From a virus (taxonomy: Duplodnaviria; Heunggongvirae; Uroviricota; Caudoviricetes), in the IMG/VR virus record IMGVR_UViG_2855308460_000004: a stretch of DNA of 64,000 nucleotides, one strand, 5' to 3'. The notes under the pieces are model-generated. The model saw only the letters and a list, made by a program, of their open reading frames with translations, ran no database searches and was not told where the DNA came from. Positions 7,814 to 61,162 of this stretch are shown piece by piece; the stretch's first letter is position 1; each line of letters opens with the position of its first letter. Made by a program: the position numbers and the translations under genes.

Positions 7814-9121
7814 ATGAATAAAAGAATTGTAGAAATAAGTGCAGCTGTAATGTTAGCATTGACAACAGTCTTAGCACTTATTGCTTTTATAGGATATAAA
7901 AAGGTAGATCAGACACTGGGATTAATGCAAAGAACAGATAAAGAAGAAATAAAGGAAATGACAAATCCAAATATATCGAATGATGTTGTGTCAACCTTAA
8001 AAGAGAATTGGACAGTCGCATTATTTGGGCTCGATACAAGGGATACAGATGGTCTGTCGGGTGCAAATTCTGATGTAATCATTCTTGCATCTATTAATAA
8101 TAAAACTGGTGATATTAATTTAATTTCTGTATATCGGGATACATGTTTAAAAACTGGTGATAATCGATACCGAAAAGTAAATGAAGCATATGCAATTGGC
8201 GGACCTAAGAAGGCTGTAGAGGTACTAAATGAAAACCTTGATTTGGAAATTGATGACTATGTAGCGGTAAATTGGAAAGCTGTTGCAACAGCAATTAATA
8301 TTTTAGGCGGAGTCGATATTGAAATCACAAAAGATGAATTGAAATATATCAATGGATATATAACAGAAACAGTGAATAGTACAGGAATAGGGTCATATCA
8401 GATACATGAAGCAGGGATGCAGCATTTGGATGGAATTCAAGCAGTTGCATATTCAAGAATCCGATATACAGCAGGAAATGATTATAAGCGGACAGAACGC
8501 CAAAGAACAGTCCTTGCTGCTGTTTTAGAGAAAGCAAAACATTCAGATTGGTCTACGCTTAATAATGTCATAGTGACTGTTTTCCCAATGACATCTTCAT
8601 CCATCGATACAAATGATGTGATTACAGTTGCTATGAATGTCGCTAATTATAAATTAATAAAAACAGGAGGGTTCCCATTTGATGTAATTGAAAAAAGCGT
8701 GGATAAGCAGGATTATGTTTTTCCTGATACGCTCGAAACTAACGTCTCTAAATTACATGAATTTTTATATGGAACAGACGCCTATACTCCTTCAGATAAA
8801 ATATCTTCCATTAGTAATAAAATTGATAATAAGCGCTTAGGAAGTAAAAGGAACATAAGCAGCACAATCCAACAGGAAACAATGCCAACTGAAGTAAATA
8901 ATGAACCAGAAACAGAAGAGGCAATGTCACAGACAGTAGCCATAGTAAGTGATGAAACAGAAGAAAATATGGATAATATGACAGAACCAGAAACCAATAT
9001 AGAACCGGAAGTAGGCCCGGGAATACAAATTTCAACGCCAGAAGAAAAAACAAAAGAAAACTATGGACCAGGATTTGAAATAGAAATAGAGGAAACTGAA
9101 GAAGCCCAAAGCCCTTCATAA
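7814..9121 (+). CDS. LCP (LytR-CpsA-Psr) family protein with an N-terminal TM and acidic C-terminal tail
   Basis: LCP motifs: LFGLDTRDTDG…SDVIILASIN, YRDT, AVNWKAVATAINILGGVDIEI. Confidence 0.75.
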   Translation: MNKRIVEISAAVMLALTTVLALIAFIGYKKVDQTLGLMQRTDKEEIKEMTNPNISNDVVSTLKENWTVALFGLDTRDTDGLSGANSDVIILASINNKTGDINLISVYRDTCLKTGDNRYRKVNEAYAIGGPKKAVEVLNENLDLEIDDYVAVNWKAVATAINILGGVDIEITKDELKYINGYITETVNSTGIGSYQIHEAGMQHLDGIQAVAYSRIRYTAGNDYKRTERQRTVLAAVLEKAKHSDWSTLNNVIVTVFPMTSSSIDTNDVITVAMNVANYKLIKTGGFPFDVIEKSVDKQDYVFPDTLETNVSKLHEFLYGTDAYTPSDKISSISNKIDNKRLGSKRNISSTIQQETMPTEVNNEPETEEAMSQTVAIVSDETEENMDNMTEPETNIEPEVGPGIQISTPEEKTKENYGPGFEIEIEETEEAQSPS

Positions 9122-9230
9122 AATAGCTAGAAAAATCAAAGATAAACCTTAGTGGTTTATCTTTTTTGTAATTTTTGTTTTTCGAAACCAACTTACATAC
9201 TTTAATTATATTAATGTGTGGAGGTGAAGT

Positions 9231-9872
9231 ATGGCTGAACAAGTGAGAATGGTATTTCAACCTATTTTTGATAAAACAATGCAGGTGTTTGCATACGAGG
9301 GATTAATGAGATTTACAGATACAACGATTGTAAAAGTAATAAGTGAGTGCAGGTCATATTCCGACTTTTACGAAATAGAAAAACTGACATTTTTTAAAGC
9401 TTTACAGGAATATCAAAAACGTAACTATAAAGAAAAACTTTTTATTAACTCGTTCCCTCATGTCCATCTAAGCAAAGCTGATCTGTCTGAAATAATTTCT
9501 CATCACAAGGATACATTAAAAAAAGTAGTAATAGAAATACTTGAATATCCAGATTTAGACCAAGCATCAGTCAAGCAAAAAAAAGATGATGTTAGAAATT
9601 ACGAAGTATTATTTGCAATTGATGATTATGGAGTAAATACATTTGAAAATCTGAAATCAATTGCTCCGGCTTATCTAAAGATTGACAGAAGTATTATTTC
9701 TGGGATACATGAGGACAAAGAAAAACAAAATCAGTTGGATAGTATTCTAGAAATTGCAGATAAATATTCATGTCTTACAATTGCCGAAGGAATAGAAACA
9801 GATAATGAGTTATCTTATTTAAAAAATAAGGTTAATTATTTTCAGGGTTTTCTTTTAGGAAAACCAAATTAA
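9231..9872 (+). CDS. Stand-alone EAL-domain protein (c-di-GMP phosphodiesterase-like), 213 aa
   Basis: YEGLMR (EAL motif), DDYGVN (DDFGTG), LKIDRS, AEGIET, FQGFLLGKP. Confidence 0.7.
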   Translation: MAEQVRMVFQPIFDKTMQVFAYEGLMRFTDTTIVKVISECRSYSDFYEIEKLTFFKALQEYQKRNYKEKLFINSFPHVHLSKADLSEIISHHKDTLKKVVIEILEYPDLDQASVKQKKDDVRNYEVLFAIDDYGVNTFENLKSIAPAYLKIDRSIISGIHEDKEKQNQLDSILEIADKYSCLTIAEGIETDNELSYLKNKVNYFQGFLLGKPN

Positions 9873-9951
9873 AAAGGCCATCAGGCCTTTTATTTATTAA
9901 TAATTATAGACATTATATTACAGAATAAATAAAGATAAAGGAGAAAATATT

Positions 9952-10707
9952 ATGTCAGTTGTACTCAATACAAAAAAAGAATTGTTTTTAGGGAAAAGAC
10001 CTTTTAAGTCAAGAAAGATGGATAAAGATGAATTTGCTAGTCTGGCAAAAGAACTGTATGACAAAATAAAAAATCAGTATAAAGATGAATATGAAGACTA
10101 TTTTGAAGAGGATAACAATACTACAGATTCTCAATTATGGGCTATCGATATATTTGTCAACGAATATGATGGAGATGAATTACCAGAGGAACTGAAATTA
10201 TACTATGAGGACTTAAGCGAAGTTATTGGTGCTGGAATGACCATAATGAACTGGGAAGATGAGCCAGGCCAGTTTAGTATTCAGACATTGGATAATGGAT
10301 TCACTTATATGAAAGTATATTCTTCTGTTGGAGATGATGCGTTTAGACCAATGTGTAACATTATCTACTTTAATCAGGATAACAAATTGCGATTGTATGT
10401 CCCATATTGTGGAAACTTAGTATTTGTTGGAGCGGATACACAAATGTGTGTATATGGCGGATATGGAGAAGAAGAACGTGAAATCAAGAAATTATTTGAC
10501 GAAGCAAAAAGTTCTAATGGACCAGCTGAATTAAATATCATGGGAAAAGTTTTTATGTGCTATTATAAGGATGAAACCTTCTATAAGTTATATGGACAGA
10601 AATATGGTATGAATTGTTCAGATGAAGATTTTAATTCTGACGAAGATTTTATTTTTGATGAAGAACTTATGCTTGAAGACATTAAATCAAATGTCATTTT
10701 AGAATAA
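9952..10707 (+). CDS. Hypothetical acidic protein (251 aa)
   Basis: ORF with RBS; D/E-rich. Confidence 0.5.
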   Translation: MSVVLNTKKELFLGKRPFKSRKMDKDEFASLAKELYDKIKNQYKDEYEDYFEEDNNTTDSQLWAIDIFVNEYDGDELPEELKLYYEDLSEVIGAGMTIMNWEDEPGQFSIQTLDNGFTYMKVYSSVGDDAFRPMCNIIYFNQDNKLRLYVPYCGNLVFVGADTQMCVYGGYGEEEREIKKLFDEAKSSNGPAELNIMGKVFMCYYKDETFYKLYGQKYGMNCSDEDFNSDEDFIFDEELMLEDIKSNVILE

Positions 10708-10791
10708 AAGGCTGAAAAGCCTTTTTTTAACTTAGCATTTTTACTCAATCATGTCATACTAACTATAAGAAAAGAGAAAGGTGATTAAAAT

Positions 10792-12114
10792 ATGTTTGTA
10801 TTAATGAAAAATAAAGGGACAAGAAATAAAATATTATTGATTTTAGGATTCATAATATTTGTTCGTATTGGAAGTATTATTCCAATACCTGGGATTAATA
10901 GTGAATATATGAAATCAATCATATCAGGATCCGGATTTCAGTTCTTTAATATGATTACAGGTAACTCTTTTTCCAAGATGTCTCTATTTGCACTAAGTAT
11001 AAGTCCATATATCACAGCGTCAATCATCATCCAATTAATGACTGTAATAATTCCTAAATTAGAAGATTTAAGTAAGGATGGAAAAACAGGACTAGAAAAG
11101 ATTCAAAAAATAACAAATGTTACTGGAATTATAATAGGTTTCATCCAATCTTTTTTCATGGCAGTCAGTTTGGGATCAAAAGGTCTTCTTAATCCATATA
11201 CATGGTGGATGGTTTTGATTGCAACCTGCATCTGGACATTAGGAGCTACTATTTTAATCATAATGGGTGAGAAGATAACGAAACTGGACCTTGGAAATGG
11301 AATATCCTTTATATTATTATTCAATATCCTATCTACATTCCCTGGTGATCTAATGGTTGTCTATGAACGGTTTTCATATGATAGTAAACCAGTTGCAATT
11401 GCTTTAAAACTTTTTTTGGCAATAGCCGTATTCATGGTTTTCCTGGCTGGATGTATCTATTTGAATTTATCTGAAAAAAGAATACAGATAAGATTTTCTA
11501 GAAAGAGCATAAATAATGAGCAAGGAAAAGATTTGCCAATATCATTGAATATCTGTAATGTGATGCCAGTCATTTTTACTGGAAGTATTATAAGCATGGT
11601 TAACATTGCAGCAACTTTCAGCTCCAATCAAATACTATTAACAATTTCAAAATACTTATCACCCAATAATTGGTTTATAATAGGTAGTCTAAAATATACA
11701 TTAGGTTGCATTGTATATATACTGCTTGCCTATTTCTTTGCAAATTTTTATTTAGACATAGCATTTAATGCCACTGAAATTGCACAAAGATTGAAAGCTC
11801 AAGGTGCTACCATTCCAGGAATTAGGCCAGGAAAACCAACATCAGAATTTTTACATACAAATGCGTTTGAAATGATGGTACTAGGGACTGGTTTGATGTT
11901 GTGCATTGTTCTGGGAGCATCTTTGGTGTGTAATATCTTTGGAATAGGTGTTTTGAGTATTGGCGGTACATCTATCCTAATCTGCGTTAATGTAATCATA
12001 GAAACATACAAAAAAATTAAAACAGCTGCCCAAAGTGTAAGGGTTCAGAGTTACTATAAGAAAAAGAATAGCAGAAAGTCATTATTCCAGATGAAAGGAG
12101 TCTATAATGTTTAA
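10792..12114 (+). CDS. secY: SecY preprotein translocase subunit homolog (440 aa), outside any ribosomal-protein operon
   Basis: FVRIGSIIPIPGIN; FALSISPYITASIIIQLMTVI; GKTGLEKIQKITN; GNGISFIL; GIRPGKPTSEFL; GGTSILI — these match SecY signatures across all regions. Confidence 0.85.
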   Translation: MFVLMKNKGTRNKILLILGFIIFVRIGSIIPIPGINSEYMKSIISGSGFQFFNMITGNSFSKMSLFALSISPYITASIIIQLMTVIIPKLEDLSKDGKTGLEKIQKITNVTGIIIGFIQSFFMAVSLGSKGLLNPYTWWMVLIATCIWTLGATILIIMGEKITKLDLGNGISFILLFNILSTFPGDLMVVYERFSYDSKPVAIALKLFLAIAVFMVFLAGCIYLNLSEKRIQIRFSRKSINNEQGKDLPISLNICNVMPVIFTGSIISMVNIAATFSSNQILLTISKYLSPNNWFIIGSLKYTLGCIVYILLAYFFANFYLDIAFNATEIAQRLKAQGATIPGIRPGKPTSEFLHTNAFEMMVLGTGLMLCIVLGASLVCNIFGIGVLSIGGTSILICVNVIIETYKKIKTAAQSVRVQSYYKKKNSRKSLFQMKGVYNV

Positions 12115-12256
12115 TCGCATTCACCAAATGTATATACCAGATAAGATTAAAGTAATTAAAACAATGGTAATGGTAAGCTTGTCTATTTTAATATTGTCAA
12201 GCTTTGTATTTAGTATTGACACACTTATTGCAGGAATATATCAGATGATAATATAA
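12107..12256 (+). CDS. Possible small membrane protein (49 aa) overlapping the secY stop
   Basis: ATG overlaps the secY stop; hydrophobic. Confidence 0.25.
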   Translation: MFNRIHQMYIPDKIKVIKTMVMVSLSILILSSFVFSIDTLIAGIYQMII

Positions 12257-12262
12257 AATAAA

Positions 12263-12283
12263 AAGAAGGCGCAAGCCTTCTTT
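12263..12283. terminator. Bidirectional terminator between secY (+) and clpP (−)
   Basis: gaaggc-gcaa-gccttc flanked by A and T runs. Confidence 0.6.
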
Positions 12284-12878
12284 ATTTTGTTGATACGATT
12301 GTATCTACAATACCATATGCCAATGCTTCATCAGCAGTCAGATAGTTGTCTCTTTCTGTATCTTCACATACCGTGACATAGGGCTTCCCGGTATTCTCAG
12401 ATAAAATTCTGTTTAAACGTTCTTTGGTTTTTTTAATATGGTCAGCGACAATCAGGATTTCGGTTGCCTGGCCTTTTGCACCTCCACTTGGCTGATGAAT
12501 CATTACCTCCGCATTCGGCATAATCATACGTTTGCCTTTTGTACCACCAGCAAGCAGGAATGCTCCCATGCTAGCAGCCATTCCCATACAGATTGTGGAA
12601 ACATCACTTTTGATATATTTCATTGTGTCATAAATAGCCATCCCTGCAGTTACAGACCCACCCGGACTGTTAATGTATAAATAAATATCTTTACCAGGAT
12701 CAACAGAATCCAAAAATAGAAGCTGAGAAGTGATAGAGGCGGCCATTTCATCACAAACTTCTCCAGTTAACATGATGATTCTGTCATTAAGTAATCTTGA
12801 AAAAATATCATATGATCTTTCTCCAGTAGCTGTTCTTTCTATTACATATGGCATTGTAGTCATATTCGTATATCCCAT
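12282..12878 (-). CDS. clpP: ATP-dependent Clp protease proteolytic subunit ClpP
   Basis: Ser-His-Asp motifs [31 protein letters not shown]; bacterial-type length. Confidence 0.9.
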
Positions 12879-13101
12879 AATTATATCTCCTTTTATTCTA
12901 TAAATTTTACATGTTTATAATGTTAAAAAAAAGGACCATATAACTACTAAATTGTATTCTGTGCGTATTACGGTTTGTGACCATCGATAATTTCGAATTA
13001 TATCGGAAGTTAAAATGACATTATATATGCATCAACAGAAATAGATGGAGCATATTTAATGTTTTTATATTTCTGTATTAAAACAAAAGGAGAATTTCAA
13101 T

Positions 13102-13620
13102 ATGAAACTTACTATTATTGGAAAAACTGTTACAATTACGGATGGTATGAGGGAGGCTATTACCGAAAAGCTTTCTAAATGTGATAAATATTTAAAGGAA
13201 AACACGCCGGTAAGAGTAGTTGTCCGAACTGTAAGAGATGACCAAATCATTGAGGTAGCCATTCCAACTGGAAAGAATAAGGAAATCCGAGCAGAACGCA
13301 GAAGTAAGGATCTTTATGAAGCAATTGATTTGGTAGAAGAAGTTCTCAACAGACAGCTTAGGAAACAGAAAGAAAAGAAATTAGATAAGAAACGTATACC
13401 GGTTATGTTTTTAGAAACAGAGCCAGAAGCAGAAATCAAACCGCTTATTATGAAAGAAAAACAGTTTGATTTACAGATGATGACTCCTGAAGAGGCGGTT
13501 GAGGAACTGGAGGCTTTAGACCATGACTTTCATTTATTTATGAATGTGATGGATGGTAGGGTAGGTGTCGTATATAGAAGGAAAGAGGCTGGATACGGGC
13601 TGCTTGCAGCAAATATGTAA
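13102..13620 (+). CDS. hpf: Ribosome hibernation promoting factor (long HPF/RaiA family)
   Basis: MKLTIIGK…ITDGMREAI; N-terminal RaiA fold plus a C-terminal dimerisation domain; 172 aa. Confidence 0.75.
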   Translation: MKLTIIGKTVTITDGMREAITEKLSKCDKYLKENTPVRVVVRTVRDDQIIEVAIPTGKNKEIRAERRSKDLYEAIDLVEEVLNRQLRKQKEKKLDKKRIPVMFLETEPEAEIKPLIMKEKQFDLQMMTPEEAVEELEALDHDFHLFMNVMDGRVGVVYRRKEAGYGLLAANM

Positions 13621-13645
13621 GAGAGGGAAACCTCTCTTTTTGTTT
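13621..13645 (+). terminator. Intrinsic terminator
   Basis: gagagg-gaaa-cctctc + T-run. Confidence 0.6.
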
Positions 13646-13697
13646 TGAGGAATTATCATACATATTATCTCAAAGATGAAAAAATGGAGATAAAATT

Positions 13698-14111
13698 ATG
13701 ATGATAGAGAAATATTTTGAGATGACAAAGAGAGTGGCCATGAACTCTGAATTCAACAGAGTCCATGTTGGATGTATTGCCATTTATAAAGGCAGAATGA
13801 TAGGTTCAGGTTTCAATTCAGAGAAGACACATCCAATGCAGTATCACTATAACCGATATCGGCAGAATGATAATGTGATATCAGCTAATCTGTTGCCAAA
13901 GATTCATGCTGAAATCATGTGCATCAGTAGCATAAAAAACCAGGATATTGATTTTAAAAAGGTTAAGCTATTTATCTATAGAATTAGAAATGACCAGCCT
14001 TTTGGTATTGCAAGGCCATGCGCGGCATGCATGAATGCAATAAAAGATTTAGGAATCAAAAATATATACTATACAACTGATGTGGGTTATGCACATGAAT
14101 ACTTGGCCTGA
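13698..14111 (+). CDS. dCMP/cytidine deaminase-family zinc enzyme (137 aa)
   Basis: HAE…PCAAC zinc-binding signature. Confidence 0.65.
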   Translation: MMIEKYFEMTKRVAMNSEFNRVHVGCIAIYKGRMIGSGFNSEKTHPMQYHYNRYRQNDNVISANLLPKIHAEIMCISSIKNQDIDFKKVKLFIYRIRNDQPFGIARPCAACMNAIKDLGIKNIYYTTDVGYAHEYLA

Positions 14112-14147
14112 ATTATCTTAATAACAAAAAAGAGGCATCTGCCTCTT

Positions 14148-14789: not shown

Positions 14790-14901
14790 GTTTTCCTCCT
14801 GTTATCTTTGATACTAATAGTATGAAATGAAATGATGTAATATAATTATCAACTTAGATTTATTGACATTATACTACTATAAACAGATGAAAGGAGTAAA
14901 T

Positions 14902-15504: not shown

Positions 15505-15526
15505 TTGAGATGAGGAAAGGATTAGT

Positions 15527-15995: not shown

Positions 15996-16092
15996 TAATA
16001 AAAATAAATTTTTTTTTAAAAAAGGTTAACAAAATAGAAAAATCAATCATAATATATATGTAATAAAAAATTACTAAAGCTGTCCATATGTG
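15996..16092 (+). repeat. Copy B of the conserved upstream module with the same promoter (TTAACA 16026–16031, 17-bp spacer, ATAATA 16049–16054)
   Basis: About 90% identical to 21–123. Confidence 0.6.
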
Positions 16093-22709: not shown

Positions 22710-23915
22710 GTGTTCGAGTTAAAAGGAAAATATAATAAGTGCAAAATCTTTACGGACGATGTAGATGAGGATTGTATAAGGCAATTAATTTCGCTGCTGA
22801 ATCAAGAGAGTTTACAAGACTCAATAATAAGGATTATGCCGGATGCGCATGCTGGAGCGGGATGTGTGATAGGTACAACAATGACCATTACAGATAAAGT
22901 TATTCCCAATTTAGTTGGCGTTGATATAGGTTGTGGTATGCGTACAGTGAGACTCAAAGAAAAACGGATTGAATTACCAAAATTAGATAGCATAATTCGT
23001 AAGAACATTCCTTCAGGTGGAAGTATACATGACAAATTCAATCAACTTCAATATGCAAGACGATTTGATATTGAACGCCTTCGCTGCATAGGAAAAAATA
23101 ATTGCAAAGTAAGTGAAGACATTGCTGCTTGCAGTATTGGAACACTTGGCGGCGGAAATCATTTCATTGAAGTCGACAAAGATGAAGATGGTAACTTATA
23201 TCTGGTTGTTCATACTGGAAGCCGTAGGCTTGGTAAAGATGTTGCTGAATACTATCAAAATAGGGCCTATGAGGAACTAAATTGTGTTGCCACCTATTAC
23301 AAAGAAATTAAAAAGAAGGATAGGCGGGAAAAGTGGGAAAGACCTGATCCAAGTAAATTGCCATCTGTTCCATATGAATTAGCATACTGTGAAAATGAAT
23401 TGTTGGCTGATTATATCCATGATATGGAGGTTGTGCAGGAATATGCATTTTGGAATCGGAAAGCTATTGCGAATACGATTTTAAAGGAAATGAAACTTCA
23501 TTCAGTAGAAGAATTTGAGACAGTCCACAACTATATTGATACTGAATATATGATTCTTAGAAAAGGTGCCGTCTCAGCAAGGAAAGTTGAAAAAATTTTA
23601 ATCCCGATAAATATGCGTGATGGTTCTTTACTTTGTATGGGAAAAGGAAATGAGGATTGGAATTATTCCGCACCACATGGAGCTGGCCGCTTGATGTCAA
23701 GAAGTCAGGCAAAAGAAAATATTACATTATCAGCATTCAAGAAAACAATGAAGGAGGCAGGTGTTTATAGTACATCGGTGACACGAGATACCATTGATGA
23801 GTCACCATTTGTATACAAACCCATGGAGGAGATTGTAGAAAACATAAAGGATACAGTAGAAATCATAAATGTAATTAGACCAATCTATAATTTTAAAGCT
23901 AGTGTGAAAGAATAG
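22710..23915 (+). CDS. rtcB: RtcB-family RNA ligase (GTG start)
   Basis: MPDAHAGAGCVIG and GGGNHFIEV metal-binding motifs. Confidence 0.8.
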   Translation: MFELKGKYNKCKIFTDDVDEDCIRQLISLLNQESLQDSIIRIMPDAHAGAGCVIGTTMTITDKVIPNLVGVDIGCGMRTVRLKEKRIELPKLDSIIRKNIPSGGSIHDKFNQLQYARRFDIERLRCIGKNNCKVSEDIAACSIGTLGGGNHFIEVDKDEDGNLYLVVHTGSRRLGKDVAEYYQNRAYEELNCVATYYKEIKKKDRREKWERPDPSKLPSVPYELAYCENELLADYIHDMEVVQEYAFWNRKAIANTILKEMKLHSVEEFETVHNYIDTEYMILRKGAVSARKVEKILIPINMRDGSLLCMGKGNEDWNYSAPHGAGRLMSRSQAKENITLSAFKKTMKEAGVYSTSVTRDTIDESPFVYKPMEEIVENIKDTVEIINVIRPIYNFKASVKE

Positions 23916-24687: not shown

Positions 24688-24961
24688 GCAAGGAGTGGTT
24701 TATTCAAAATACAAGATATGTAACACGAAAAGAAATTAGAAGAGAAGACCTTAAATACTGGAAGGACTATAGACCATTAGAGGAGGAAGACAAATGTATG
24801 AAGTAAGAAAGACTGATAAAAACAGACTGTGATTAAGCGAACTAGGGAAACGAACCTGTCAAACAGATTCGTTTTTTTATGGGATTGTTAGATGACAAAA
24901 AAATAAAACACATCATAATATAAATATCTATTATAAAAAATTGCCAAAGGAGGCCAATAGC

Positions 24962-39561: not shown

Positions 39562-39987
39562 ATGAATGATAAAAAAGAAGATAAGAAAACAATGGAAGTC
39601 CTTATTTATACAAGTTTTGGACTTAATACGGTACCATCTTGTATTAGATCTGCAATAAATGAAAATCCGGCCGGGCCATTACAAGAAAGAACTGAAAGAG
39701 TGATTGATAAAATACGTGAGATGGCATATAAAATAGAGAACTTGGACGGAATGGATGAAACTTCCATGGCTGAAATGATAAAGGAACACAATATCGTTCA
39801 TTGTGAAAAGTTAGATCGCTATTTTTATATACCGTCTGAATTTAATCCATATCATCACATTAAAACGATGTCAATCGTAACAGTGGATATTAGCAAACCA
39901 TGGATTATTTCAGAGTACGATGGAGCAGAGTCAATCCAATATTTTGATATATTAGATGATACCATTAATTTTTACAGAATGAAATAA
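39562..39987 (+). CDS. Hypothetical protein (141 aa); its C-terminal half is paralogous to the C-terminus of the 40073–41134 product
   Basis: Shared motifs KIREMAYKIENL / RIREIAYQVEDI and IVTVDISKPWII / IVMVDASKDWTII. Confidence 0.5.
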   Translation: MNDKKEDKKTMEVLIYTSFGLNTVPSCIRSAINENPAGPLQERTERVIDKIREMAYKIENLDGMDETSMAEMIKEHNIVHCEKLDRYFYIPSEFNPYHHIKTMSIVTVDISKPWIISEYDGAESIQYFDILDDTINFYRMK

Positions 39988-40072: not shown

Positions 40073-41134
40073 ATGGAGAAAATTAAAGCAATCAAATCAA
40101 CCGAAAAATTATGTTGGAAATGTTTACAGGAGAAAGATAATATTCATAAAATAGAATTTGGACCGTTGGGTTATGGTTCTGCATTTGACTGTTGTTCAAC
40201 TAAAATACAGTTGTGTGATGAATGCTATAAAGCCAGCTGCCCAGAGATATGGTCAGATGAATTGGTATATGATGATGAAGAATGTAAGGAATATGACTGG
40301 AGCCACTATAAATATGAAGATGAGATGTTTGAATATTTTGAATCGCTACCGATTGAAGGGAAACAGCTTGTCATGAATGAATACTGGATGGGAGACCATT
40401 TCATGGAACCACAGGATTGGATTGATTATGAATTGGGTATTTTACCACATGAGAAAGCCAAAGAATATGGCCTATATTCCATACAGGAAATAGCAGCGTA
40501 TGAAGAACGGTTTCCTAAATGCAAATGGCCAGCAAATAGAATTTATAGCGATGGAAGCAAAGGCTGCTGGTGTCCCTTTGGTGCATCAGGAAATTATAAT
40601 CAAGAGATTGGTAGTAATATAGCTGAAGAATGTTATGGATGCCCATATTACGAAGAAAGGAATGTTGAAAATATAATTCGTGATATTCCGGATAAGGATT
40701 TTAATGATTATGAAATATTATCAAAGGCATCTATAATGAAAAGTGTTAGGAAAAACATAGAGGTTTTATTGTTTCATGATTTTAATTTGGAGAGTTTACC
40801 TCACGAATTATTAGAGGTTGCTGAACATTCCAACGATCTGCTGAAGATAAGAGGGAAGGATGTTATCAATAGAATTAGAGAAATAGCTTATCAGGTGGAA
40901 GATATTCCTTCAAATAGAAAGAAGATGGAGCTATGTAAACATCACATGATTGTTTATGACAAAAAAAATGACATATATCTATATTCTGCCAAGGAAGAAA
41001 AGAATATAAGAGAGATTAAGATTGTAATGGTTGATGCATCAAAAGATTGGACAATTATAAATGTCGAACAGAAAGAACGGATTCTATACATTAAGCCGAT
41101 TCATCCATCAATTGGTTTCTGTAAATTAATTTAA
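40073..41134 (+). CDS. Hypothetical protein with a Cys-rich N-terminus and a paralog-domain C-terminus (353 aa)
   Basis: ORF with RBS aaggagtaaacc. Confidence 0.5.
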   Translation: MEKIKAIKSTEKLCWKCLQEKDNIHKIEFGPLGYGSAFDCCSTKIQLCDECYKASCPEIWSDELVYDDEECKEYDWSHYKYEDEMFEYFESLPIEGKQLVMNEYWMGDHFMEPQDWIDYELGILPHEKAKEYGLYSIQEIAAYEERFPKCKWPANRIYSDGSKGCWCPFGASGNYNQEIGSNIAEECYGCPYYEERNVENIIRDIPDKDFNDYEILSKASIMKSVRKNIEVLLFHDFNLESLPHELLEVAEHSNDLLKIRGKDVINRIREIAYQVEDIPSNRKKMELCKHHMIVYDKKNDIYLYSAKEEKNIREIKIVMVDASKDWTIINVEQKERILYIKPIHPSIGFCKLI

Positions 41135-54971: not shown

Positions 54972-54997
54972 AAAGCGGTAATTAAACCGCTTTTTCT
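54972..54997. terminator. Bidirectional terminator
   Basis: gcggt-aattaa-accgc flanked by A and T runs. Confidence 0.6.
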
Positions 54998-55326
54998 TTT
55001 GACTGGATGAATACATAGAAGGATACGCAAACAGCAAATTTTTGTGTAAGATATCTTGCCTGGAAATCGTATCCTAACATGTTTGTAATCGTCAGATACA
55101 TTGTTTTGATGGAATCAGCTAATTGTGCATGATATTCCGTAAGTCTACTGGAATACCATGACCCAGCCTTCCATACAAGCTCGGTCATTTCGTTGAACAT
55201 AGACTTAATCGCTGATAAATCACTGGAGCTCAAATTATTAAATTTTTCGTTGAACAATCTTAAGTACATATCATTGATTGTCCTATTTTTCATTACCTCT
55301 TCAATTTTTTCGATGTCGATTAACAT
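54982..55326 (-). CDS. Hypothetical protein (114 aa)
   Basis: ORF. Confidence 0.45.
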   Translation of the reverse strand: MLIDIEKIEEVMKNRTINDMYLRLFNEKFNNLSSSDLSAIKSMFNEMTELVWKAGSWYSSRLTEYHAQLADSIKTMYLTITNMLGYDFQARYLTQKFAVCVSFYVFIQSKEKAV

Positions 55327-55524
55327 TACTCAGTCTATGACTCCTTTCAAGTTATTTCTCCACATATCGTTATCAATTATAATAATGTAAATAAAAAAAG
55401 TAGAATAACTGAATAAATGAGATTTATCGAATCACAAATAAATATAAAAGAGTGTGGCAAATAAGGTTTCAAATACATAGGTTTAAAAATATTCTGTCAT
55501 ACTAAGTCTAGAGGAGGGTGTAAG

Positions 55525-56454
55525 ATGGGTTTTTTAGATAAACTATTATTAAAGAAAAAAGACAAAGAAGGTATCTCTGAAAAAGATTTATTAACGAGAT
55601 TGGATGAAAAAGGAATCATATACGCATTATCAGAGACGGATAATGGTTATCAAATGACGTACCTTGATACGTTTGACAAAGAGAAATTTGTTATAGTCAA
55701 AGATGGCGATAAATACAGGATTAATGGAAAAAGTGTATCCGAGGAGGAGATAGAAGAAATACTCGATAAACAACATAAGTTAGATAATGAAATGGAAGTT
55801 TTGCTATATGATCCAGATTATGAGAAATTAATGCTAATATACGATTTTTTAATAAAGGCCATCCCTAAAAATATAATAACCATAGATTTTGCATTATCAC
55901 CAAAAGGAGATCTTACGTTATTATTTTCAGAACCAGAGTCACGCCCTTTTACATCAATCCATATGGACAGTAAAACAAAGAAACTTGTGTATGATAAAAC
56001 AAGAGAGGTATTGAATAAAAATAATATACTGATACGGATTATAAAAGATATAAAAAAACAATTGCCTCTATTTTTCGATGCAGGAGAATTTAAAATTCCG
56101 GAACAGACTCCTTTTACAGATGTTGTAAAGACTTTTTTTGTGAATGAAGCCTTGATAGAAAGATTAAATAAGACAAAAAACATCGAAGCGAAGTTAATAG
56201 AATTTTCAGGAAACACTACAATCTTTATTATATTTAAGAATGGATCGGCCATGGAATACATTTCACCAACAAAACAGAATCCAGCAGGGAAACTTTTATT
56301 GATGGATGTCGATGAAGATACAACATTAGAAGATAATGAAGAATATTGGTTAGTCCAGAAAATATTAAAATTACCATCTTGTCTAGATGGTAAGCCAGAT
56401 GAAGAGAACATGCCTATCCGTAATTTTAAGAACAGAAAAAGCCTGAAAGTATAA
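55525..56454 (+). CDS. Hypothetical protein (309 aa)
   Basis: RBS gaggagggtg. Confidence 0.5.
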   Translation: MGFLDKLLLKKKDKEGISEKDLLTRLDEKGIIYALSETDNGYQMTYLDTFDKEKFVIVKDGDKYRINGKSVSEEEIEEILDKQHKLDNEMEVLLYDPDYEKLMLIYDFLIKAIPKNIITIDFALSPKGDLTLLFSEPESRPFTSIHMDSKTKKLVYDKTREVLNKNNILIRIIKDIKKQLPLFFDAGEFKIPEQTPFTDVVKTFFVNEALIERLNKTKNIEAKLIEFSGNTTIFIIFKNGSAMEYISPTKQNPAGKLLLMDVDEDTTLEDNEEYWLVQKILKLPSCLDGKPDEENMPIRNFKNRKSLKV

Positions 56455-56466
56455 TCAGGCTTTTAT

Positions 56467-57306
56467 TTATATGTCATATAACCAGTTATCATTAATCTGT
56501 GATATTTCATCTTTCGAAGCGACTTTACAATAAATATTTTCTACTGATATATATCGTAGTCTGAATTCATTTTTTAGTTCTTCAGCCAAACTTTCTCTTT
56601 GGTCCGGATTAACGCAAGACATGAGCGGATGTTCAAATAATTTACAGTCTGCGACAAGTCTTTTATAAAATTCCATTTTCTCCTTAGCCTTACTTTTAAC
56701 AATATCAAAATAAATATTGCGTGGTAATGAACTAAAGAGCTTTCCTTGTGTCTGTATTTCCAGATACGAAACTTTATTTAATTGATTCTCCGTATATACA
56801 TCAAAATTAGTATCCCGTTTTAGTCCATATGTATCAGAAAGCTGCGATTCATCATAACTTGCAAGATAAATATTCAAAAAAAGATTTGGCTCTAATCCAA
56901 GTTCCTTTAACTCATCTACAAATATCCCAAATTCTTCTTGTGTTCCCTTTTTTCTTTTACGTTTTGAATATTCCGAATCAGAAATAACGAAGAGCTCCTC
57001 ACCGCCGCATGATTCTGCTGCAATTTTTAGGATTTGAATGAAATCTTTTTTAATGTCCAGATTTAGAAACCCTGATATTAAGTCGAATCCATTGCCAAAA
57101 CCATGGCAGCTATGGCAGTAGAAAGCTTTTTTAAAGGTCTCGCCTAACACACAGTTATTTATATGGCGATCCTTGGAACCAGTTTCTCGTTCATGGACAG
57201 GACATTCTATGAATATGGTTTTCCCTGATTCTTTTGTGGGAATACCAAGATACTTTACAATTCCCATAGGAGAGGCTTCCTCAACAATCAAGTCAATATC
57301 ATACAT
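56467..57306 (-). CDS. CHC2 zinc-finger (DnaG primase N-terminal-like) domain protein
   Basis: CPVHERETGS…YCHSCHGFGNGFDLI. Confidence 0.45.
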   Translation of the reverse strand: MYDIDLIVEEASPMGIVKYLGIPTKESGKTIFIECPVHERETGSKDRHINNCVLGETFKKAFYCHSCHGFGNGFDLISGFLNLDIKKDFIQILKIAAESCGGEELFVISDSEYSKRKRKKGTQEEFGIFVDELKELGLEPNLFLNIYLASYDESQLSDTYGLKRDTNFDVYTENQLNKVSYLEIQTQGKLFSSLPRNIYFDIVKSKAKEKMEFYKRLVADCKLFEHPLMSCVNPDQRESLAEELKNEFRLRYISVENIYCKVASKDEISQINDNWLYDI

Positions 57307-57381
57307 ACATTTCCTCCTTCTAAGTCAAGATATTAGTATAATGCGATATAAAAGATTATAATAAAAACGGCATTGCTGCCG

Positions 57382-58185
57382 TTAAACCTCTCCATTAAAA
57401 AAGTTATTCAGTTCTTTGCTTCTCTTAAGCTTATTCATCGCATTGGATTTTATTTTATAAACATATTGTCTTGATACACCAAGTTCAAGTGCGAGATCTG
57501 TTAATTTTCGTACATGACCATTAATCCCAAAAGTATTGATGATTACATACTGTTCCAAAGGTTTTAATCGACTTTGGATTTCATGCTTTATCATCTTTTT
57601 TAACTCTTCATTAATGATGAGAGTCTCAATCGGCTCATTGAATATTAAATCACTATTCTCATCCATGGAAGCGAAGGTTCCGTTTTCCGTAAGGGAATCT
57701 AATGAATAGCATGCCTCTCTTTTGTATTTTTGTACTGTCTCTACATCTTTTACTGTTAGGTTAAACTGTTCTAACTCCTCTTCAGTGAAACAGGACTTTT
57801 TTGTAGAACTAACCAGTTTATCATATTTCCTGAGTTTATCATAAAAAGTAGAATTATAGTGAAAATCTGAATTATTCTTAGATGTTTTATCTCTCATTTC
57901 TGCACGTATCCAGCTAAAGGCATGCGTCGTAAATGAGGCCTTTGTTTCATCGTATGTAGCTAGTGCATTTATCATGCCAACAATTCCATCCTGAAACAAA
58001 TCATCTTCAGAATAATTGGATGTTTTATATTGATGAGCTAATTTGCTAATAAGTCGATAATTGTGAGCCAGTAGTTTTTCTTTTGCTTCAACATCTCCTT
58101 GTTTAGCTAGGATAGCTAAACGGTTATTCTCATCATGTCCTAAAATACATTTTTTTACCATATCTTCTTTTATGTCTTGATTCAT
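57382..58185 (-). CDS. Sigma-70 family RNA polymerase sigma factor
   Basis: Region 2-like HAFSWIRAEM and a C-terminal region 4 HTH LTDLALELGVSRQYVYKIK. Confidence 0.6.
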   Translation of the reverse strand: MNQDIKEDMVKKCILGHDENNRLAILAKQGDVEAKEKLLAHNYRLISKLAHQYKTSNYSEDDLFQDGIVGMINALATYDETKASFTTHAFSWIRAEMRDKTSKNNSDFHYNSTFYDKLRKYDKLVSSTKKSCFTEEELEQFNLTVKDVETVQKYKREACYSLDSLTENGTFASMDENSDLIFNEPIETLIINEELKKMIKHEIQSRLKPLEQYVIINTFGINGHVRKLTDLALELGVSRQYVYKIKSNAMNKLKRSKELNNFFNGEV

Positions 58186-58376
58186 AGTTTATTTATTAAA
58201 GCCATCTTCTTTGGATTTATAATTGAACTTGCATATTTTTTTAGGAATTTCATCTGACTTTAATTTTCCTCCTTTTTTCATATTTGCTTTTAATATGTCG
58301 ATTATTTAAACAAAACAATTTTGTTTTTTATTCCAAATCATCCAAAAAGCAGATACTATACTTGGAGGTGAATATT

Positions 58377-60596
58377 ATGGTGAATCATTTTCAGGGTGTA
58401 TTCAAACGTGTTTACAAGAGAAACAGTTATACGGGAGACACCATATTTGGAGTGGAAACAGATGAGATTGATGTAAGAAGAAATAAAAATGGTGAAGTAG
58501 AATGTGAGGGAATCATTCCTGAATGGCCAGAAGAATTACGGGTCATCCTTAATGGTGAATGGACAGAAGACGGTACAAGGTTTCTAATTGAAACAGTAAA
58601 ACCATGCACAGCAACGGAAGATTTAAGTAAAAAATTAATTAAGCGTGTCATTAAGGATTTAAAAGATGAGAATAATGATTTTAAAGTTGGCCCAAGGATT
58701 ATAAATAAAATACTGGAGACTTCTGGCCCAGACATACTGACTTACATAAAAAACCCAGACAGTATTGAAACTCTCAAGAAGAATATTAAGGTTGAAGAAT
58801 GGAAAATAGAAAAAATTTACGAATCACTGCTTTGTATCAATGAAAGCTATTCAATTATCGATTATGTCTCGCATTTCGGCTGCAGTATGACGGCATGTGA
58901 TAGGCTCGTAAAGAAATATGGGACAACAGCTCTGCGCAGGTTAAAGGCACATCCATATAAAATTGGATATTCAATTGGGATGGATTTCTATTCAATGGAT
59001 AAGATGGGAAAACATCGTAAATTTGATCCACTAAACAAAGAACGAGTAACTGCGGTTATTTATGAAGCACTAAATACATTATTGGAACAATATGGTTCAA
59101 CATATGTCATACAGTCTATGTTAAAAAGGCAGATAGATAAAGTAGTAAAGAAATCATCTTATCCGAATACTTTAATTCCATTTGCTTATGTTGGTACCAT
59201 ACTTGGAAAAATAAGTGGAATAAAGACAGAAATTGTAACAAACGGAGTAAGGATTTACAGAAAGGATTATTACGATTGGGAATATTCCATTGCATATGAC
59301 CTAAAACGGCTAAATAAGGATAAAAAGCAATGTATAACTAAAGGACAGATTAATGCTATGATTAAAAAGCGCGAATTGGAATATAAGATGGAATATTCAG
59401 ATGAACAAAGAAATTCATTCCAATCGATATGTACACCAGGGATAAAGATCATAACCGGTGGCCCAGGTGTTGGAAAAACAACAACAATTAATGGATTAAT
59501 CAATTCCTACATGGAACTATTTCCAGATAAGAAAATTGCTTTAGCCGCTCCAACAGGCAGGGCTGCCCAAAGAATGTGGGATATCACTATGATTGAAGCA
59601 AGAACCATCCATAAACTTCTTGACTTTAAACCATACTCTGCAGCTGGAGATGAATCTGGAGCAACAAAAGATAAGGATAACCCAATTGATGCAGATATGA
59701 TTGTGGTTGATGAAATGTCTATGGTAGATACCGAATTATTCTATTTACTGTTACAGGCAATTAGAACAGGTACAATCGTTCTATTGATTGGTGATAAAGA
59801 TCAGCTACAAAGCGTATCTCCAGGAAACATCCTTCATGATCTTCTTAAGTGCAAGATGTTCGAGGTATATCAGCTTACAAAAGTATATCGACAAAAGGGT
59901 GATAATACAATCATAGATAACGCCTATAAGATATTAAATGGCAGGATGGATTTTATTAAAAATAATAAATTTGAAATCAAACAGGCAGAATCAGATGCGG
60001 ACGCAGTGAACTGCATAATTGATAAATTCAATGAATGGTATGAAAAAGAAGATTTGAAAAAAATACAGATATTGACTCCAATCAAAGGCGGTGAATGTGG
60101 AACCGTTCAAATCAATTCTGCTGTAGCAAAAATAGTACGACATGAAATTCCAGAAGGCGTTTCTATATACCATTTTGGAAAAAACTCTTACACAGTGGGA
60201 GATAAAGTTATTTTCCATAAGAACAATTATGACAAAGACTATTATAATGGTGATATTGGATATGTTACAAATATCATAAAAAATGGAATTGAAGTCGAAG
60301 TTGGAGAGGAACTTAAGAAAGTGACAGGTGACGCATTAAAAGATGTGACACTTGCATATTCCATTACGATGCATAAGAGCCAGGGTAGTGAGTTCGAGGA
60401 TATTATCATCATGTTACCGGATACCTATAAAAATATGCTTAATAGAAATCTGTTATTTACAGCTGTCACAAGAGCGAAAAGAAAGGTTTTTATAGTCTAT
60501 ATTAATTCCGCATTAAGTGATTCCGTGCATACTATAGTTGTAGATAAACGATATACAGGTTTAGTAGATAAAATAAGGAAGGTAATGGCAGCATAA
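58377..60596 (+). CDS. RecD-like (SF1) DNA helicase
   Basis: Walker A GGPGVGKTT; AAPTGRAAQR; VVDEMSMVD; C-terminal SH3-like and motif VI regions. Confidence 0.8.
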   Translation: MVNHFQGVFKRVYKRNSYTGDTIFGVETDEIDVRRNKNGEVECEGIIPEWPEELRVILNGEWTEDGTRFLIETVKPCTATEDLSKKLIKRVIKDLKDENNDFKVGPRIINKILETSGPDILTYIKNPDSIETLKKNIKVEEWKIEKIYESLLCINESYSIIDYVSHFGCSMTACDRLVKKYGTTALRRLKAHPYKIGYSIGMDFYSMDKMGKHRKFDPLNKERVTAVIYEALNTLLEQYGSTYVIQSMLKRQIDKVVKKSSYPNTLIPFAYVGTILGKISGIKTEIVTNGVRIYRKDYYDWEYSIAYDLKRLNKDKKQCITKGQINAMIKKRELEYKMEYSDEQRNSFQSICTPGIKIITGGPGVGKTTTINGLINSYMELFPDKKIALAAPTGRAAQRMWDITMIEARTIHKLLDFKPYSAAGDESGATKDKDNPIDADMIVVDEMSMVDTELFYLLLQAIRTGTIVLLIGDKDQLQSVSPGNILHDLLKCKMFEVYQLTKVYRQKGDNTIIDNAYKILNGRMDFIKNNKFEIKQAESDADAVNCIIDKFNEWYEKEDLKKIQILTPIKGGECGTVQINSAVAKIVRHEIPEGVSIYHFGKNSYTVGDKVIFHKNNYDKDYYNGDIGYVTNIIKNGIEVEVGEELKKVTGDALKDVTLAYSITMHKSQGSEFEDIIIMLPDTYKNMLNRNLLFTAVTRAKRKVFIVYINSALSDSVHTIVVDKRYTGLVDKIRKVMAA

Positions 60597-61162
60597 TGAG
60601 ACATTTGTTTAAAGATTTTTTAGAATTTATAAAAACAGTCATACCAGCTATTATATTAGCATGGGTCATAACACATTTTTTGATTGCGAATGCAATCGTA
60701 CCAACAGGGTCAATGGAGTCAACCATCGTAACAGGAAGCCGGTTAATAGGAAATCGTTTGGCATATAAGTTTGGAACATTGCCAGAACGTGGAGATATTA
60801 TTATATTTAAATATCCTGATGACGAATCCATTTACTATGTAAAACGTATTATAGGAACACCTGGAGACACAATAGAAATCATCCCAGATGTAGATATAAC
60901 GTCAGAAACATCAAATCTTAAAACAGCAACCGGTCATGTATACGTAAATGGACATCCAATCTATGAAGATTATTTAAATGAACCGATGATGGTGAATGAA
61001 TATATGAAATTTGAAGTCCCTGAAGACGCTTATTTTTGTATGGGAGATAATCGGAACAATTCTCATGATTCGAGATATTGGGATAACCACTTTGTATATG
61101 AAGAAAAAATCATAGCAAAAGTAATGTTCCAATATTGGAAGGGTATAAAAATTTTTCATTGA
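60596..61162 (+). CDS. lepB: Signal peptidase I (S26 family)
   Basis: GSMESTI (catalytic Ser), YVKRIIGTPGD (catalytic Lys), GDNRNNSHDSRYW. Confidence 0.85.
   Translation: MRHLFKDFLEFIKTVIPAIILAWVITHFLIANAIVPTGSMESTIVTGSRLIGNRLAYKFGTLPERGDIIIFKYPDDESIYYVKRIIGTPGDTIEIIPDVDITSETSNLKTATGHVYVNGHPIYEDYLNEPMMVNEYMKFEVPEDAYFCMGDNRNNSHDSRYWDNHFVYEEKIIAKVMFQYWKGIKIFH

Follow-up and report, generated by a model that had tools for sequence, protein, structure and literature searches.

A candidate export and surface-display module on a very large, low-GC, probably conjugative element of gut Lachnospiraceae

Introduction

Few core genes of cells are as conserved as SecY, and to our knowledge mobile elements have long been assumed to depend on the SecY of their host. 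The present study concerns a 64,000-nucleotide stretch of DNA that is filed as a tailed virus in IMG/VR (IMGVR_UViG_2855308460_000004; the whole stretch is called the window here) and that encodes a SecY of its own, together with a probable SecE, a LytR-CpsA-Psr (LCP) ligase, a TelA-family protein, a flotillin, and signal peptidase I. In our view, the window probably belongs to the backbone of a conjugative element from gut Lachnospiraceae that is very large, low in guanine-plus-cytosine (GC) content, and equipped with a private module for export and surface display. The element is most likely a megaplasmid.

The only paper joining SecY with giant gut elements in the literature searched is a preprint on the Hodor conjugative megaplasmids of human gut Bacillota, which are 211 to 389 kb long with a GC content of 44.6 to 47.1% (Yuan et al., bioRxiv Feb 2026, PMC12934698). 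Hodors encode Rep_3, ParA/B/M (ParM/StbA), VirB4, VirD4, a hard-to-detect VirB6, and a MOBH-like relaxase with a separate helicase, as well as sortases, SecY-SecG-SecE, trigger factor, and giant surface proteins (PMC12934698). Assignment to Hodor group G1 or G2 calls for a nucleotide identity of 90% or more across 80% or more of the length, with a GC content in the above range, and geNomad and VirSorter2 consistently call these megaplasmids viral (PMC12934698).

The element described here resembles Hodors in being a giant gut element with VirB4, VirD4, and VirB6-like genes, a separate helicase, ParA, TnpB, and lysozyme-type genes, in having its own SecY and a probable SecE beside genes for secreted surface proteins, and in having relatives that are filed as viral. 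Its mode of operation is Hodor-like, but with a GC content of 34% it falls outside the published definition of the group. There are further differences. No SecG, trigger factor, sortase, or giant open reading frame (ORF) was found in the window or the flanks read, where an LCP ligase and wall-binding repeats are found instead, so that attachment would be by noncovalent wall binding rather than by sortase anchoring. Rep_3, ParB/ParM, and a MOBH-like relaxase were not seen in the ~125 kb of the element that was read. Signal peptidase I, TelA, flotillin, PspA, and 37 tRNAs are present here, and the hosts are cultured (Enterocloster, Hungatella, and Lacrimispora), whereas Hodors are known from metagenomes only. 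The text of PMC12934698 makes no mention of tRNA, LytR, signal peptidase, flotillin, TelA, Enterocloster, Hungatella, or Lacrimispora. An earlier note on the window, made from the sequence alone, had called its assemblage of envelope and secretion genes undescribed; this holds for the combination with LCP, TelA, flotillin, signal peptidase, and tRNAs but not for SecY-SecG-SecE, which was already known from Hodors. The deep conservation of SecY-SecE-LCP and the isolate assemblies from cultured hosts add to the interest of the element.

A second point of comparison is the accessory Sec system (SecA2-SecY2-Asp) of streptococci, staphylococci, and lactobacilli. The likeness, by inference, is a second SecY that serves a few surface proteins encoded nearby.

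Results

A SecY outside the ribosomal operon, with a probable SecE partner

The window corresponds to ~276.6 to 340.6 kb of contig QSGP01000005.1 (472,371 bp) in the assembly of an Enterocloster aldenensis isolate (GCA_003467385.1). Nearly all of its coding sequence is on the plus strand, and roughly one gene in two is without a family match. Together with the flanks and with walked sequence of a close relative, ~125 kb was read out of an element of roughly 400 to 560 kb, and the GC content was 0.33 to 0.35 throughout these ~125 kb and in all loci of the element. Loci that were compared with the window are designated by L-numbers (L002, L004, L098, etc.). The five genes that the earlier note had assembled into an envelope and secretion toolkit are all present, with family matches above curated cut-offs except for the match of the flotillin to the FloT equivalog model. 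The span it gave started at position 7814, outside which TelA (6525) falls, and it overlooked the SecE-like ORF at 12107-12256. The genes in question and their immediate neighbors are as follows.

6525..7706, plus strand: TelA-family protein (envelope or toxic-anion stress), RHB42125.1; PF05816, 197.9 bits versus a cut-off of 30, model positions 14-327 of 332
7814..9121, plus strand: LCP (LytR-CpsA-Psr) glycopolymer-to-peptidoglycan ligase, RHB42126.1; PF03816, 122.8 bits; TIGR00350, 103.6 bits (cut-off, 62.3)
9231..9872, plus strand: stand-alone EAL domain protein (putative cyclic di-GMP phosphodiesterase), between LCP and SecY; PF00563, 99 bits
9952..10707, plus strand: acidic 251-amino-acid protein directly upstream of SecY; no Pfam or PHROG match; kept in close variants
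10792..12114, plus strand: element-borne SecY, RHB42129.1; PF00344, 240.9 bits; TIGR00967, 276.1 bits (equivalog cut-off of 253.6 passed)
12107..12256, plus strand: probable SecE, 49 amino acids, single transmembrane segment; overlaps the SecY stop codon by 8 nucleotides
12282..12878, minus strand: ClpP protease subunit, convergent with SecE; PF00574, 270 bits; NF001368, 310.9 versus 249 bits
13102..13620, plus strand: ribosome hibernation-promoting factor (long HPF); PF02482, PF16321, TIGR00741
31238..32779, plus strand: flotillin (FloT-like SPFH scaffold); Band_7 PF01145, 85.9 bits; Flot PF15975, 31.6 bits
58377..60596, plus strand: RecD2-type SF1B helicase, RHB42181.1; HHH_RecD2, AAA_19/30, SH3_13, UvrD_C_2
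60596..61162, plus strand: signal peptidase I, RHB42182.1; PF10502, 143 bits; TIGR02227, 135.2 bits (cut-off, 47)
61250..62908, plus strand: 552-amino-acid lipoprotein (lipobox LLSGC), downstream of signal peptidase; ortholog in L100

The SecY match to PF00344 covers the whole model (1-306 of 306), the PGIRPG loop is conserved, ten transmembrane (hydrophobic) segments are predicted, and solved SecY structures in the PDB were matched with an E value of 1e-54. The protein is a true SecY and not the SecY2 of accessory Sec systems, for which scores fell far short of the cut-offs (TIGR02920, 94.9 versus 249.6 bits; NF009082, 104.3 versus 353 bits). No SecA2/SecA or Asp families were found among the ORFs of the window or its flanks. 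The element further differs from accessory Sec systems in that the partner of SecY is SecE-like rather than Asp4/Asp5 and in that no SecA2, Asp1-5, serine-rich-repeat (SRR) glycosyltransferases, or SRR adhesin was seen.

The canonical SecY operon of Lachnospiraceae has the order rplO-secY-adk-map-infA, and the rplO-secY-adk context (adk alone on short contigs) was found at 75 of the 80 related genome loci that were retrieved with a SecY alignment. None of rplO, adk, map, infA, or other ribosomal-protein neighbors occurs in the window or in the element loci. In a neighbor-joining tree, the SecY proteins of the window and of L004, L006, L011 to L014, L027, and L098 formed an element-only clade apart from the canonical sequences. 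The window SecY is only ~40% identical to Lachnospiraceae SecY, and no SecY more than ~43% identical was found in 185,579 species-representative genomes, whereas copies that are 88 to 98% identical sit on dozens of similar large contigs. Because representative genomes of its host species lack a close SecY, the element appears to be accessory. These results, with the GC content of 0.34 over ~125 kb, bear out the proposal that the genes are element borne. The ordinary chromosomal context that would have refuted the claim of the earlier note was not seen.

Searches of other collections for relatives of this SecY gave no further copies. PLSDB contained none, the best SecY there being a canonical chromosomal copy at 39% identity. 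The SecY tblastn matches in phages and plasmids were canonical SecYs on mislabeled chromosome fragments; one of these, L008, has the full ribosomal operon around SecY and is a fragment of the Agathobacter rectalis chromosome filed as a plasmid. Scans of IMG/VR with SecY and with the SecY-clade alignment gave no match, and the sole related IMG/VR contig begins downstream of SecY.

The 49-amino-acid ORF that follows SecY scored 15.9 bits against the SecE model TIGR00964 (E = 0.009; cut-off, 27.55 bits), and a profile of four homologs of this small ORF retrieved no SecE from the PDB. A small ORF lies directly after SecY in five lineages. The syntenic homolog in L004 has a precomputed PF00584 match and that in L098 a weak one; the best PDB match of the L098 homolog is Aquifex SecE (3dl8_C), aligned in the right register (residues 21-60 versus 18-57) with an E value of 0.24. 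On the basis of position and these matches, the ORF is a probable SecE.

With its full-length, 10-segment SecY, a probable single-transmembrane SecE-type partner, and a signal peptidase with an intact Ser/Lys dyad, the set resembles the SecYEG and LepB/SipS proteins of Firmicutes. It differs in that SecY lies outside the ribosomal operon, is ~40% identical to the SecY of the host family, and is mobile, in that the probable SecE is cut to 49 amino acids, and in that the signal peptidase gene is coupled to a RecD2 helicase gene.

The EAL gene is intact in the window but broken by a TnpB-type insertion in a variant with a 92%-identical SecY (L002:7961-9892); thus, it is dispensable for the module. 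The position of ClpP is syntenic in L004. An alternative identity of ClpP as a prohead protease was considered, and the model failed.

LCP ligase, TelA, signal peptidase I, and secreted wall proteins

The LCP domain is complete (TIGR00350, 1-151 of 152; PF03816, 1-149 of 150) and is preceded by an N-terminal membrane anchor at residues 4-27. LCP genes adjoin SecY-SecE in L004, L006, L011, and L098, at 47 to 58% identity. TelA is 58% identical and syntenic in L004/L005, with a ratio of nonsynonymous to synonymous substitution rates (dN/dS) of 0.058.

In the translation of the signal peptidase I gene, the Ser box (PTGSMEST), the Lys box (VKRIIG), and the GDNRNNSxDSR box are intact, and dN/dS is 0.108. 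A TraF-type conjugal peptidase was ruled out (NF010459, 23.8 versus 156 bits; TIGR02771, 22.1 versus 100.25 bits). As the earlier note had observed, the gene overlaps the helicase stop; the ATG shares one base with the RecD2 stop codon (TAATG), and the arrangement suggests that the two genes are translationally coupled. The signal peptidase is 65% identical to the copy in L100, which has a like arrangement, and chromosomal Lachnospiraceae copies are ~54% identical.

Potential substrates are encoded close by. A 362-amino-acid secreted protein with wall-binding repeats lies just left of the window, and its orthologs in distant lineages are 42 to 44% identical. The wall-binding-repeat proteins, the lipoprotein, the SLT and 3D wall hydrolases, and the parts of the type IV secretion system (T4SS; see below) all have signal peptides or membrane anchors. 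Just past the T4SS genes and a serine recombinase, at L186:18289-20113, are genes for a Bac_transf priming phosphoglycosyl transferase (228 bits) and a UDP-glucose 6-dehydrogenase. This pair may mark where a glycopolymer locus begins, whose product could supply the LCP ligase.

A Shine-Dalgarno sequence precedes each of the five genes named in the earlier note, and their dN/dS values against relatives range from 0.06 to 0.22, which indicates that they are maintained by purifying selection. Twelve intrinsic terminators were found in comparison to 2.9 expected, and terminators follow TelA (at 7724-7747), LCP, EAL, the 251-amino-acid ORF, and SecE. Thus the genes adjoin but are mostly separate transcription units, with the exception of SecY-SecE and RecD2-signal peptidase.

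The module is conserved across divergent element lineages

Close variants of the element, with SecY proteins 88 to 98% identical, share the order TelA-LCP-EAL-251 amino acids-SecY-SecE-ClpP-HPF. In the lineage represented by L004, in which SecY is 55% identical, the order is TelA-HSP20-x-LCP-SecY-SecE-Bax1-I-ClpP. The second region of the window is likewise kept in this lineage (L100), where the order is SLT-ParA-like-757 amino acids-309 amino acids-primase-like-sigma-RecD2-signal peptidase-lipoprotein-PNK-topoisomerase and where the start/stop overlap is retained. The most distant lineages (SecY, 42 to 45% identical; GC content, 40 to 48%) keep SecY-SecE-LCP and an ortholog of the 362-amino-acid wall-binding-repeat protein. 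Because synteny persists at 55% and at 42 to 45% SecY identity, the association of these genes is beyond chance. The synteny that the earlier note had suggested looking for in related elements was therefore found, with TelA-LCP-SecY-SecE-ClpP in order where SecY is only 55% identical.

These comparisons show, at the level of gene order, a conserved core that consists of SecY, the SecE-like ORF, the LCP ligase, and the secreted wall-binding protein, which travel together at SecY identities of 42 to 55%, and they show TelA and RecD2-signal peptidase-lipoprotein to be backbone genes. Two further loci in the SecY clade look like conjugative elements and not phages, judging from their genes: L012 (Pilosibacter fragilis) has a RecD2 helicase, and L014 (Otoolea muris) has a ParA-like ATPase, a 1736-amino-acid protein, and a Phage_lysozyme2/NlpC-P60 hydrolase.

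Genes with possible quality-control functions were noticed near the module in relatives. A Bax1-I/YccA-like gene directly follows SecE in L004 (L004:11542-12210), an HSP20 gene follows TelA (L004:6352-6816), and a gene for an FtsH-like protease is found upstream of SecY in L098 (L098:1971-3776). In Escherichia coli, YccA and FtsH control the degradation of jammed SecY.

The flotillin is a later capture

The fifth gene of the supposed toolkit has a different history. The flotillin scored 344.4 bits against the FloT model NF058507, below the equivalog cut-off of 700, with alignment over model positions 42-470. It resembles FloT of Bacillus subtilis in its SPFH and flotillin domains and its hydrophobic N terminus (membrane hairpin) and differs in falling below the equivalog cut-off, in having no NfeD partner that was seen, and in being a mobile copy of a Lachnospiraceae chromosomal gene. 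It is 85 to 86% identical to the chromosomal flotillin of Lacrimispora, which lies between gyrase-type topoisomerase genes and polC on a 5.3-Mb contig (L093), and in the tree the element flotillins are the sister group of the Lacrimispora clade. The flotillins of the window and of L091 (L091:10001-11542) are 80% identical, whereas the flanking genes are 93 to 98% identical. From these relationships we conclude that the flotillin was captured later from a Lacrimispora-like host chromosome, possibly with allele replacement or repeated exchange with host chromosomal genes. Thus, the five genes are not one unit as had been proposed; SecY, SecE, LCP, TelA, and signal peptidase are old backbone, to which flotillin was added later.

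Conjugation genes and the extent of the element

Relatives of window proteins that are at least 90% identical were found on dozens of contigs from metagenomes, of which the longest measure 311, 314, 376, 378, 443, 454, and 562 kb, and also on a 396,256-bp contig of Hungatella hathewayi. Single proteins at least 90% identical came from Enterocloster citroniae and Lacrimispora amygdalina. Thus, isolate assemblies from no fewer than two species, E. aldenensis and H. hathewayi, contain the element. Element contigs run from ~376 to 562 kb at 34% GC. The left flank of the window encodes NAPRTase, NAD synthase (NadE), Uma2, and a secreted choline-binding-repeat protein; the right flank encodes a PNK-like kinase-phosphatase, a type IA topoisomerase, PcfJ, an MscS channel, and a P-type ATPase.

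The T4SS genes come from the sequence of a 95%-identical relative, IMGVR_UViG_3300039379_000022 (233,248 bp; loci L101, L182, and L184 to L186), which was found by alignment of the conserved 780-amino-acid protein of the window and was walked in four steps with scanning of ORFs. This relative is collinear with positions 43.7 to 64 kb of the window at 93 to 96% nucleotide identity and extends ~200 kb further to the right. Along the walk come a P-type ATPase, PspA/IM30, and a YpsA/DprA-like protein; a wall-binding-repeat protein and a second RecD2 helicase; an AAA_5 and CobT/VWA pair and guanylate kinases; VirD4, a TrbL/VirB6-like protein, and VirB4; DUF6551 and a large serine recombinase; and then Bac_transf and UDP-glucose dehydrogenase. 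VirD4 scored 514.6 bits (NF045973; cut-off, 250) and VirB4 903.6 bits (NF045971; cut-off, 325), ~42 kb beyond the window.

Members of the same clusters at 90% identity or more are encoded on the 472,371-bp contig of E. aldenensis, namely, the VirB6-like protein (RHB42229.1; DW886_17065) and the 468-amino-acid protein upstream of VirD4 (RHB42223.1; DW886_17035), whose tags place them ~40 genes past signal peptidase. VirB4 (WP_373262255.1) shares the 396,256-bp H. hathewayi contig with signal peptidase (WP_373262223.1), RecD2, and the ParA-like protein. The best VirB4 match in PLSDB was 48% identical, on Clostridium plasmids. Because cluster look-up ties VirD4, VirB4, and VirB6-like genes to isolate contigs, the element is, by its gene content, conjugative. 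The 309-amino-acid backbone protein was considered as a possible relaxase, and its AlphaFold2 single-sequence model (mean predicted local distance difference test score, 47.7) was too poor for use.

The first alternative to a megaplasmid is an integrative conjugative element or genomic island in the host chromosome, with gene content and functions unchanged. In its favor are a large serine recombinase gene next to the T4SS genes, the occurrence of TnpB elements and Uma2 genes, and the variable size of element contigs (376 to 562 kb). In addition, a SecY-SecE-LCP module with wall-binding proteins, NAD-dependent ligase, LPD11, YopX, and Wzy_C is located at 2,193,836-2,215,161 of a 2.8-Mb polished long-read contig, contig_12_polypolish (L098), and certain members of the family may be integrated in chromosomes. 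However, a ParA/MinD-like ATPase is conserved in the backbone, the longest contigs of many independent assemblies end at 0.38 to 0.56 Mb and never reach the megabase range, two Joint Genome Institute contigs are almost equal in size (376,462 and 377,641 bp), and there is no high-GC flank in the ~125 kb. We therefore consider an integrated state of the window's element unlikely, though it is the strongest of the alternatives.

The second alternative is the one implied by the IMG/VR record and by the term "phage genome" in the earlier note, a huge temperate phage or phage-plasmid whose Sec and envelope genes are auxiliary and sustain export and membrane integrity during takeover. IMG/VR lists a close relative among its viral genomes. 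The element has 37 tRNAs with RtcB and a PNK-like kinase-phosphatase, as well as an HNH/NUMOD4 endonuclease, dCMP deaminase, NAPRTase, NadE, a CobS/CobT-like pair, radical SAM enzymes, ADP-ribosylglycohydrolases, and its own sigma factor, and ~70% of it lies outside the stretch read. Such tRNA, NAD+ salvage, HNH, and sigma genes are common in huge phages, and low GC content and many genes without known function add to the likeness with jumbo phages. In contrast, no capsid, portal, terminase, or tail families were found in the ~125 kb of window, flank, and walked proteins, which were scanned or precomputed (Pfam and PHROG); PHROG matches among 10 proteins without known function were limited to two, ParA and a weak primase. 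VirD4, VirB4, and VirB6-like genes are present, and isolates from several species maintain the element stably. No relatives were found in 50,697 GenBank phage records, megablast of window positions 5 to 29 kb against GenBank phages gave only a tRNA-level match, and tblastn of the 780-amino-acid protein against phages and plasmids gave no match; tblastn matches of RecD2 were too unspecific to inform. No paper linking jumbo phages with SecY, flotillin, or signal peptidase was found in the literature searched. The phage reading is therefore improbable, and the label of the earlier note is not supported.

The walked relative, IMGVR_UViG_3300039379_000022, has VirD4, VirB4, and VirB6-like genes and no virion gene in the 78 kb read and is nonetheless filed as viral; it is likely a conjugative element misclassified as a virus. 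Membership in IMG/VR weighs little here because megaplasmids of this type are called viral by geNomad and VirSorter2.

Other features of the window

The remaining features assigned in the window are the following.

539..2682, plus strand: tRNA array 1, 18 genes (ARAGORN, Rfam)
3126..4370, plus strand: TnpB (IS605 OrfB) insertion sequence nuclease; PF01385, PF07282
16489..19077, plus strand: tRNA array 2, 19 genes (ARAGORN, Rfam)
22710..23915, plus strand: RtcB RNA ligase (tRNA repair); PF01139, 221 bits
41225..43916, plus strand: OpuA-type glycine-betaine ABC transporter (ATPase-CBS and permease-binding-protein fusion); PF00005, PF00571; PF00528, PF04069
47087..47587, minus strand: secreted 3D-domain protein (signal peptide ...SYA|AS); PF06725
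49911..50657, plus strand: SLT lytic transglycosylase; PF01464; equal position in L100
51136..54971, plus strand: ParA/MinD-like ATPase (496 amino acids) and conserved 780-amino-acid protein with no assigned function; AAA_31, ParA, phrog_164
57382..58185, minus strand: sigma-70 family sigma factor; PF04542, PF04545; kept in L100

The 37 tRNA genes of the window lie in two arrays (ARAGORN and Rfam), and Rfam detected no rRNA. The two tRNA finders disagreed at an 89-nucleotide tRNA-Ile(tat) at 1330-1418, called by ARAGORN only, and a tRNA at 865-941, called by Rfam only. The tRNA supply fits an AT-rich replicon in GC-richer hosts; the loci fetched from Hungatella and Lacrimispora have a GC content of 43 to 45%, and Enterocloster genomes are presumably richer still. 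RtcB is within a conserved His_Phos-R2K-RtcB block. With the PNK-like kinase-phosphatase (L009:11876-13075) and the tRNAs it makes up a tRNA-repair kit, which would counter anticodon nucleases.

A 61-nucleotide AT-rich box is found upstream of each tRNA array (39-99 and 16010-16070; the copies are 92% identical), and a partial third copy is upstream of an RNaseH-like gene (24895-24925). The box resembles a shared strong promoter (GGTTAACA ... CATAATATATAT). Dispersed repeats, when searched for, were limited to tRNA-derived families and this promoter-like box.

The presence of TnpB varies among element variants, and the pair of the ParA-like and 780-amino-acid proteins is kept in L100. A 236-amino-acid protein upstream of TelA (4811-5521) has three transmembrane segments and shares an N-terminal zinc-ribbon (MR..GIC..CKHE.QIDTNKIT.TCPFCG) with a 440-amino-acid PDZ-domain protein encoded 75 kb away (L097:2980-4302); these membrane proteins appear to be paralogous. 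Adjacent ORFs of 141 (39562-39987) and 353 (40073-41134) amino acids share a domain at ~31% identity, suggestive of a local duplication. In addition to OpuA, the element carries other genes for membrane or osmotic stress, PspA/IM30 (L182:13892-14560), MscS (L097:1607-2659), and the P-type cation ATPase (L097:1-1123).

Discussion

How the module might function

Together with SecA (and SecG/YidC) of the host, the element SecY-SecE pair would make up an additional or alternative translocon; host SecA would be needed because no SecA, SecG, or YidC was seen on the stretch read. Exported precursors would be trimmed by the element signal peptidase I. The LCP ligase would attach an element-specified glycopolymer, perhaps made by the Bac_transf/UDP-glucose dehydrogenase locus, to peptidoglycan, and the remodeled surface would display the wall-binding proteins, lipoproteins, wall hydrolases, and T4SS parts of the element. 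TelA, PspA, flotillin, ClpP, OpuA, and MscS could buffer the resulting membrane and secretion stress, as could the Bax1-I/YccA-like, HSP20, and FtsH-like proteins of relatives. Having its own parts would make the export of AT-rich foreign proteins less dependent on the host, whether Enterocloster, Hungatella, or Lacrimispora.

Several points weigh against the proposal of a conjugative megaplasmid with its own export module. For the E. aldenensis contig, the link with the T4SS consists solely of 90% clusters of two neighboring genes and a UniRef VirD4 entry. No replication initiator, Rep_3, ParB, ParM, relaxase, or oriT was seen in the ~125 kb that was read out of roughly 400 to 560 kb, so that an extrachromosomal state is presumptive, and the large serine recombinase and the related module in the 2.8-Mb contig permit an integrated form. 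The layout of the module, in which most genes have their own terminators, does not support coregulation. The SecE assignment is weak, with scores under curated cut-offs, and the stretch read contains no SecA, SecG, YidC, or sortase. Finally, channel use, the substrate of the ligase, and stress buffering are inferred from family membership and gene neighborhood; the role in secretion and envelope remodeling put forward in the earlier note is reasonable on the same grounds.

A different function for the extra translocon would be as a replacement or decoy that guards the host-element pair from toxins, phages, or translocon jamming directed at host SecY, and that might create host dependence on the element. 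SecY evolves faster than its neighbors (92% versus 97 to 98% identity in L002), and quality-control genes are found near the module (Bax1-I/YccA-like and HSP20 in L004, FtsH-like in L098, and ClpP beside SecE in the window). However, no partner that would act as a toxin or immunity protein was identified, SecY-SecE is constantly accompanied by an LCP ligase and a secreted wall-binding protein, which fit surface display better, and the Hodor analog ties SecYEG to giant secreted proteins. We regard a decoy as highly improbable.

The idea that the chromosome of a low-GC bacterium supplied these genes as ordinary housekeeping genes, through contamination or as host Sec machinery, can be dismissed. 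The assembly is a draft, and SecY, signal peptidase, ClpP, and HPF all have the scores of full-length, functional members of their families, but the context in effect refutes the idea: there are no ribosomal-protein, adk, map, or infA neighbors and no rRNA; a SecY ~40% identical to cellular SecY recurs in 88 to 98% identical copies on dozens of large contigs like this one; a family match is lacking for about half of the genes; T4SS, TnpB, and HNH genes are present; and the same element occurs in different genera. A contaminant genome of the candidate phyla radiation (CPR) or Mollicutes type was likewise ruled out (no rRNA or ribosomal protein genes; T4SS and TnpB present).

Implications

Beyond the probable case for a conjugative element with a private export module, we suggest more tentatively, and at somewhat less than even confidence, that a deep-branching family of giant gut-Lachnospiraceae elements has kept a sortase-independent, private means of surface display (SecY-SecE, signal peptidase, LCP, and wall-binding protein) down to 42% SecY identity and that the present lineage is the first with cultured hosts. 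As a practical caution, IMG/VR lists such elements among viruses, and analyses that depend on marker genes or on binning could be distorted by the SecY and tRNA genes they carry. The isolate assemblies of E. aldenensis and H. hathewayi open a mobile-element translocon to genetic testing, unlike the metagenome-only Hodors. If the proposal is true, a family of giant conjugative elements could rewrite the surface of the gut bacterium that it enters, which would affect adhesion, phage receptors, immune recognition, and mating.

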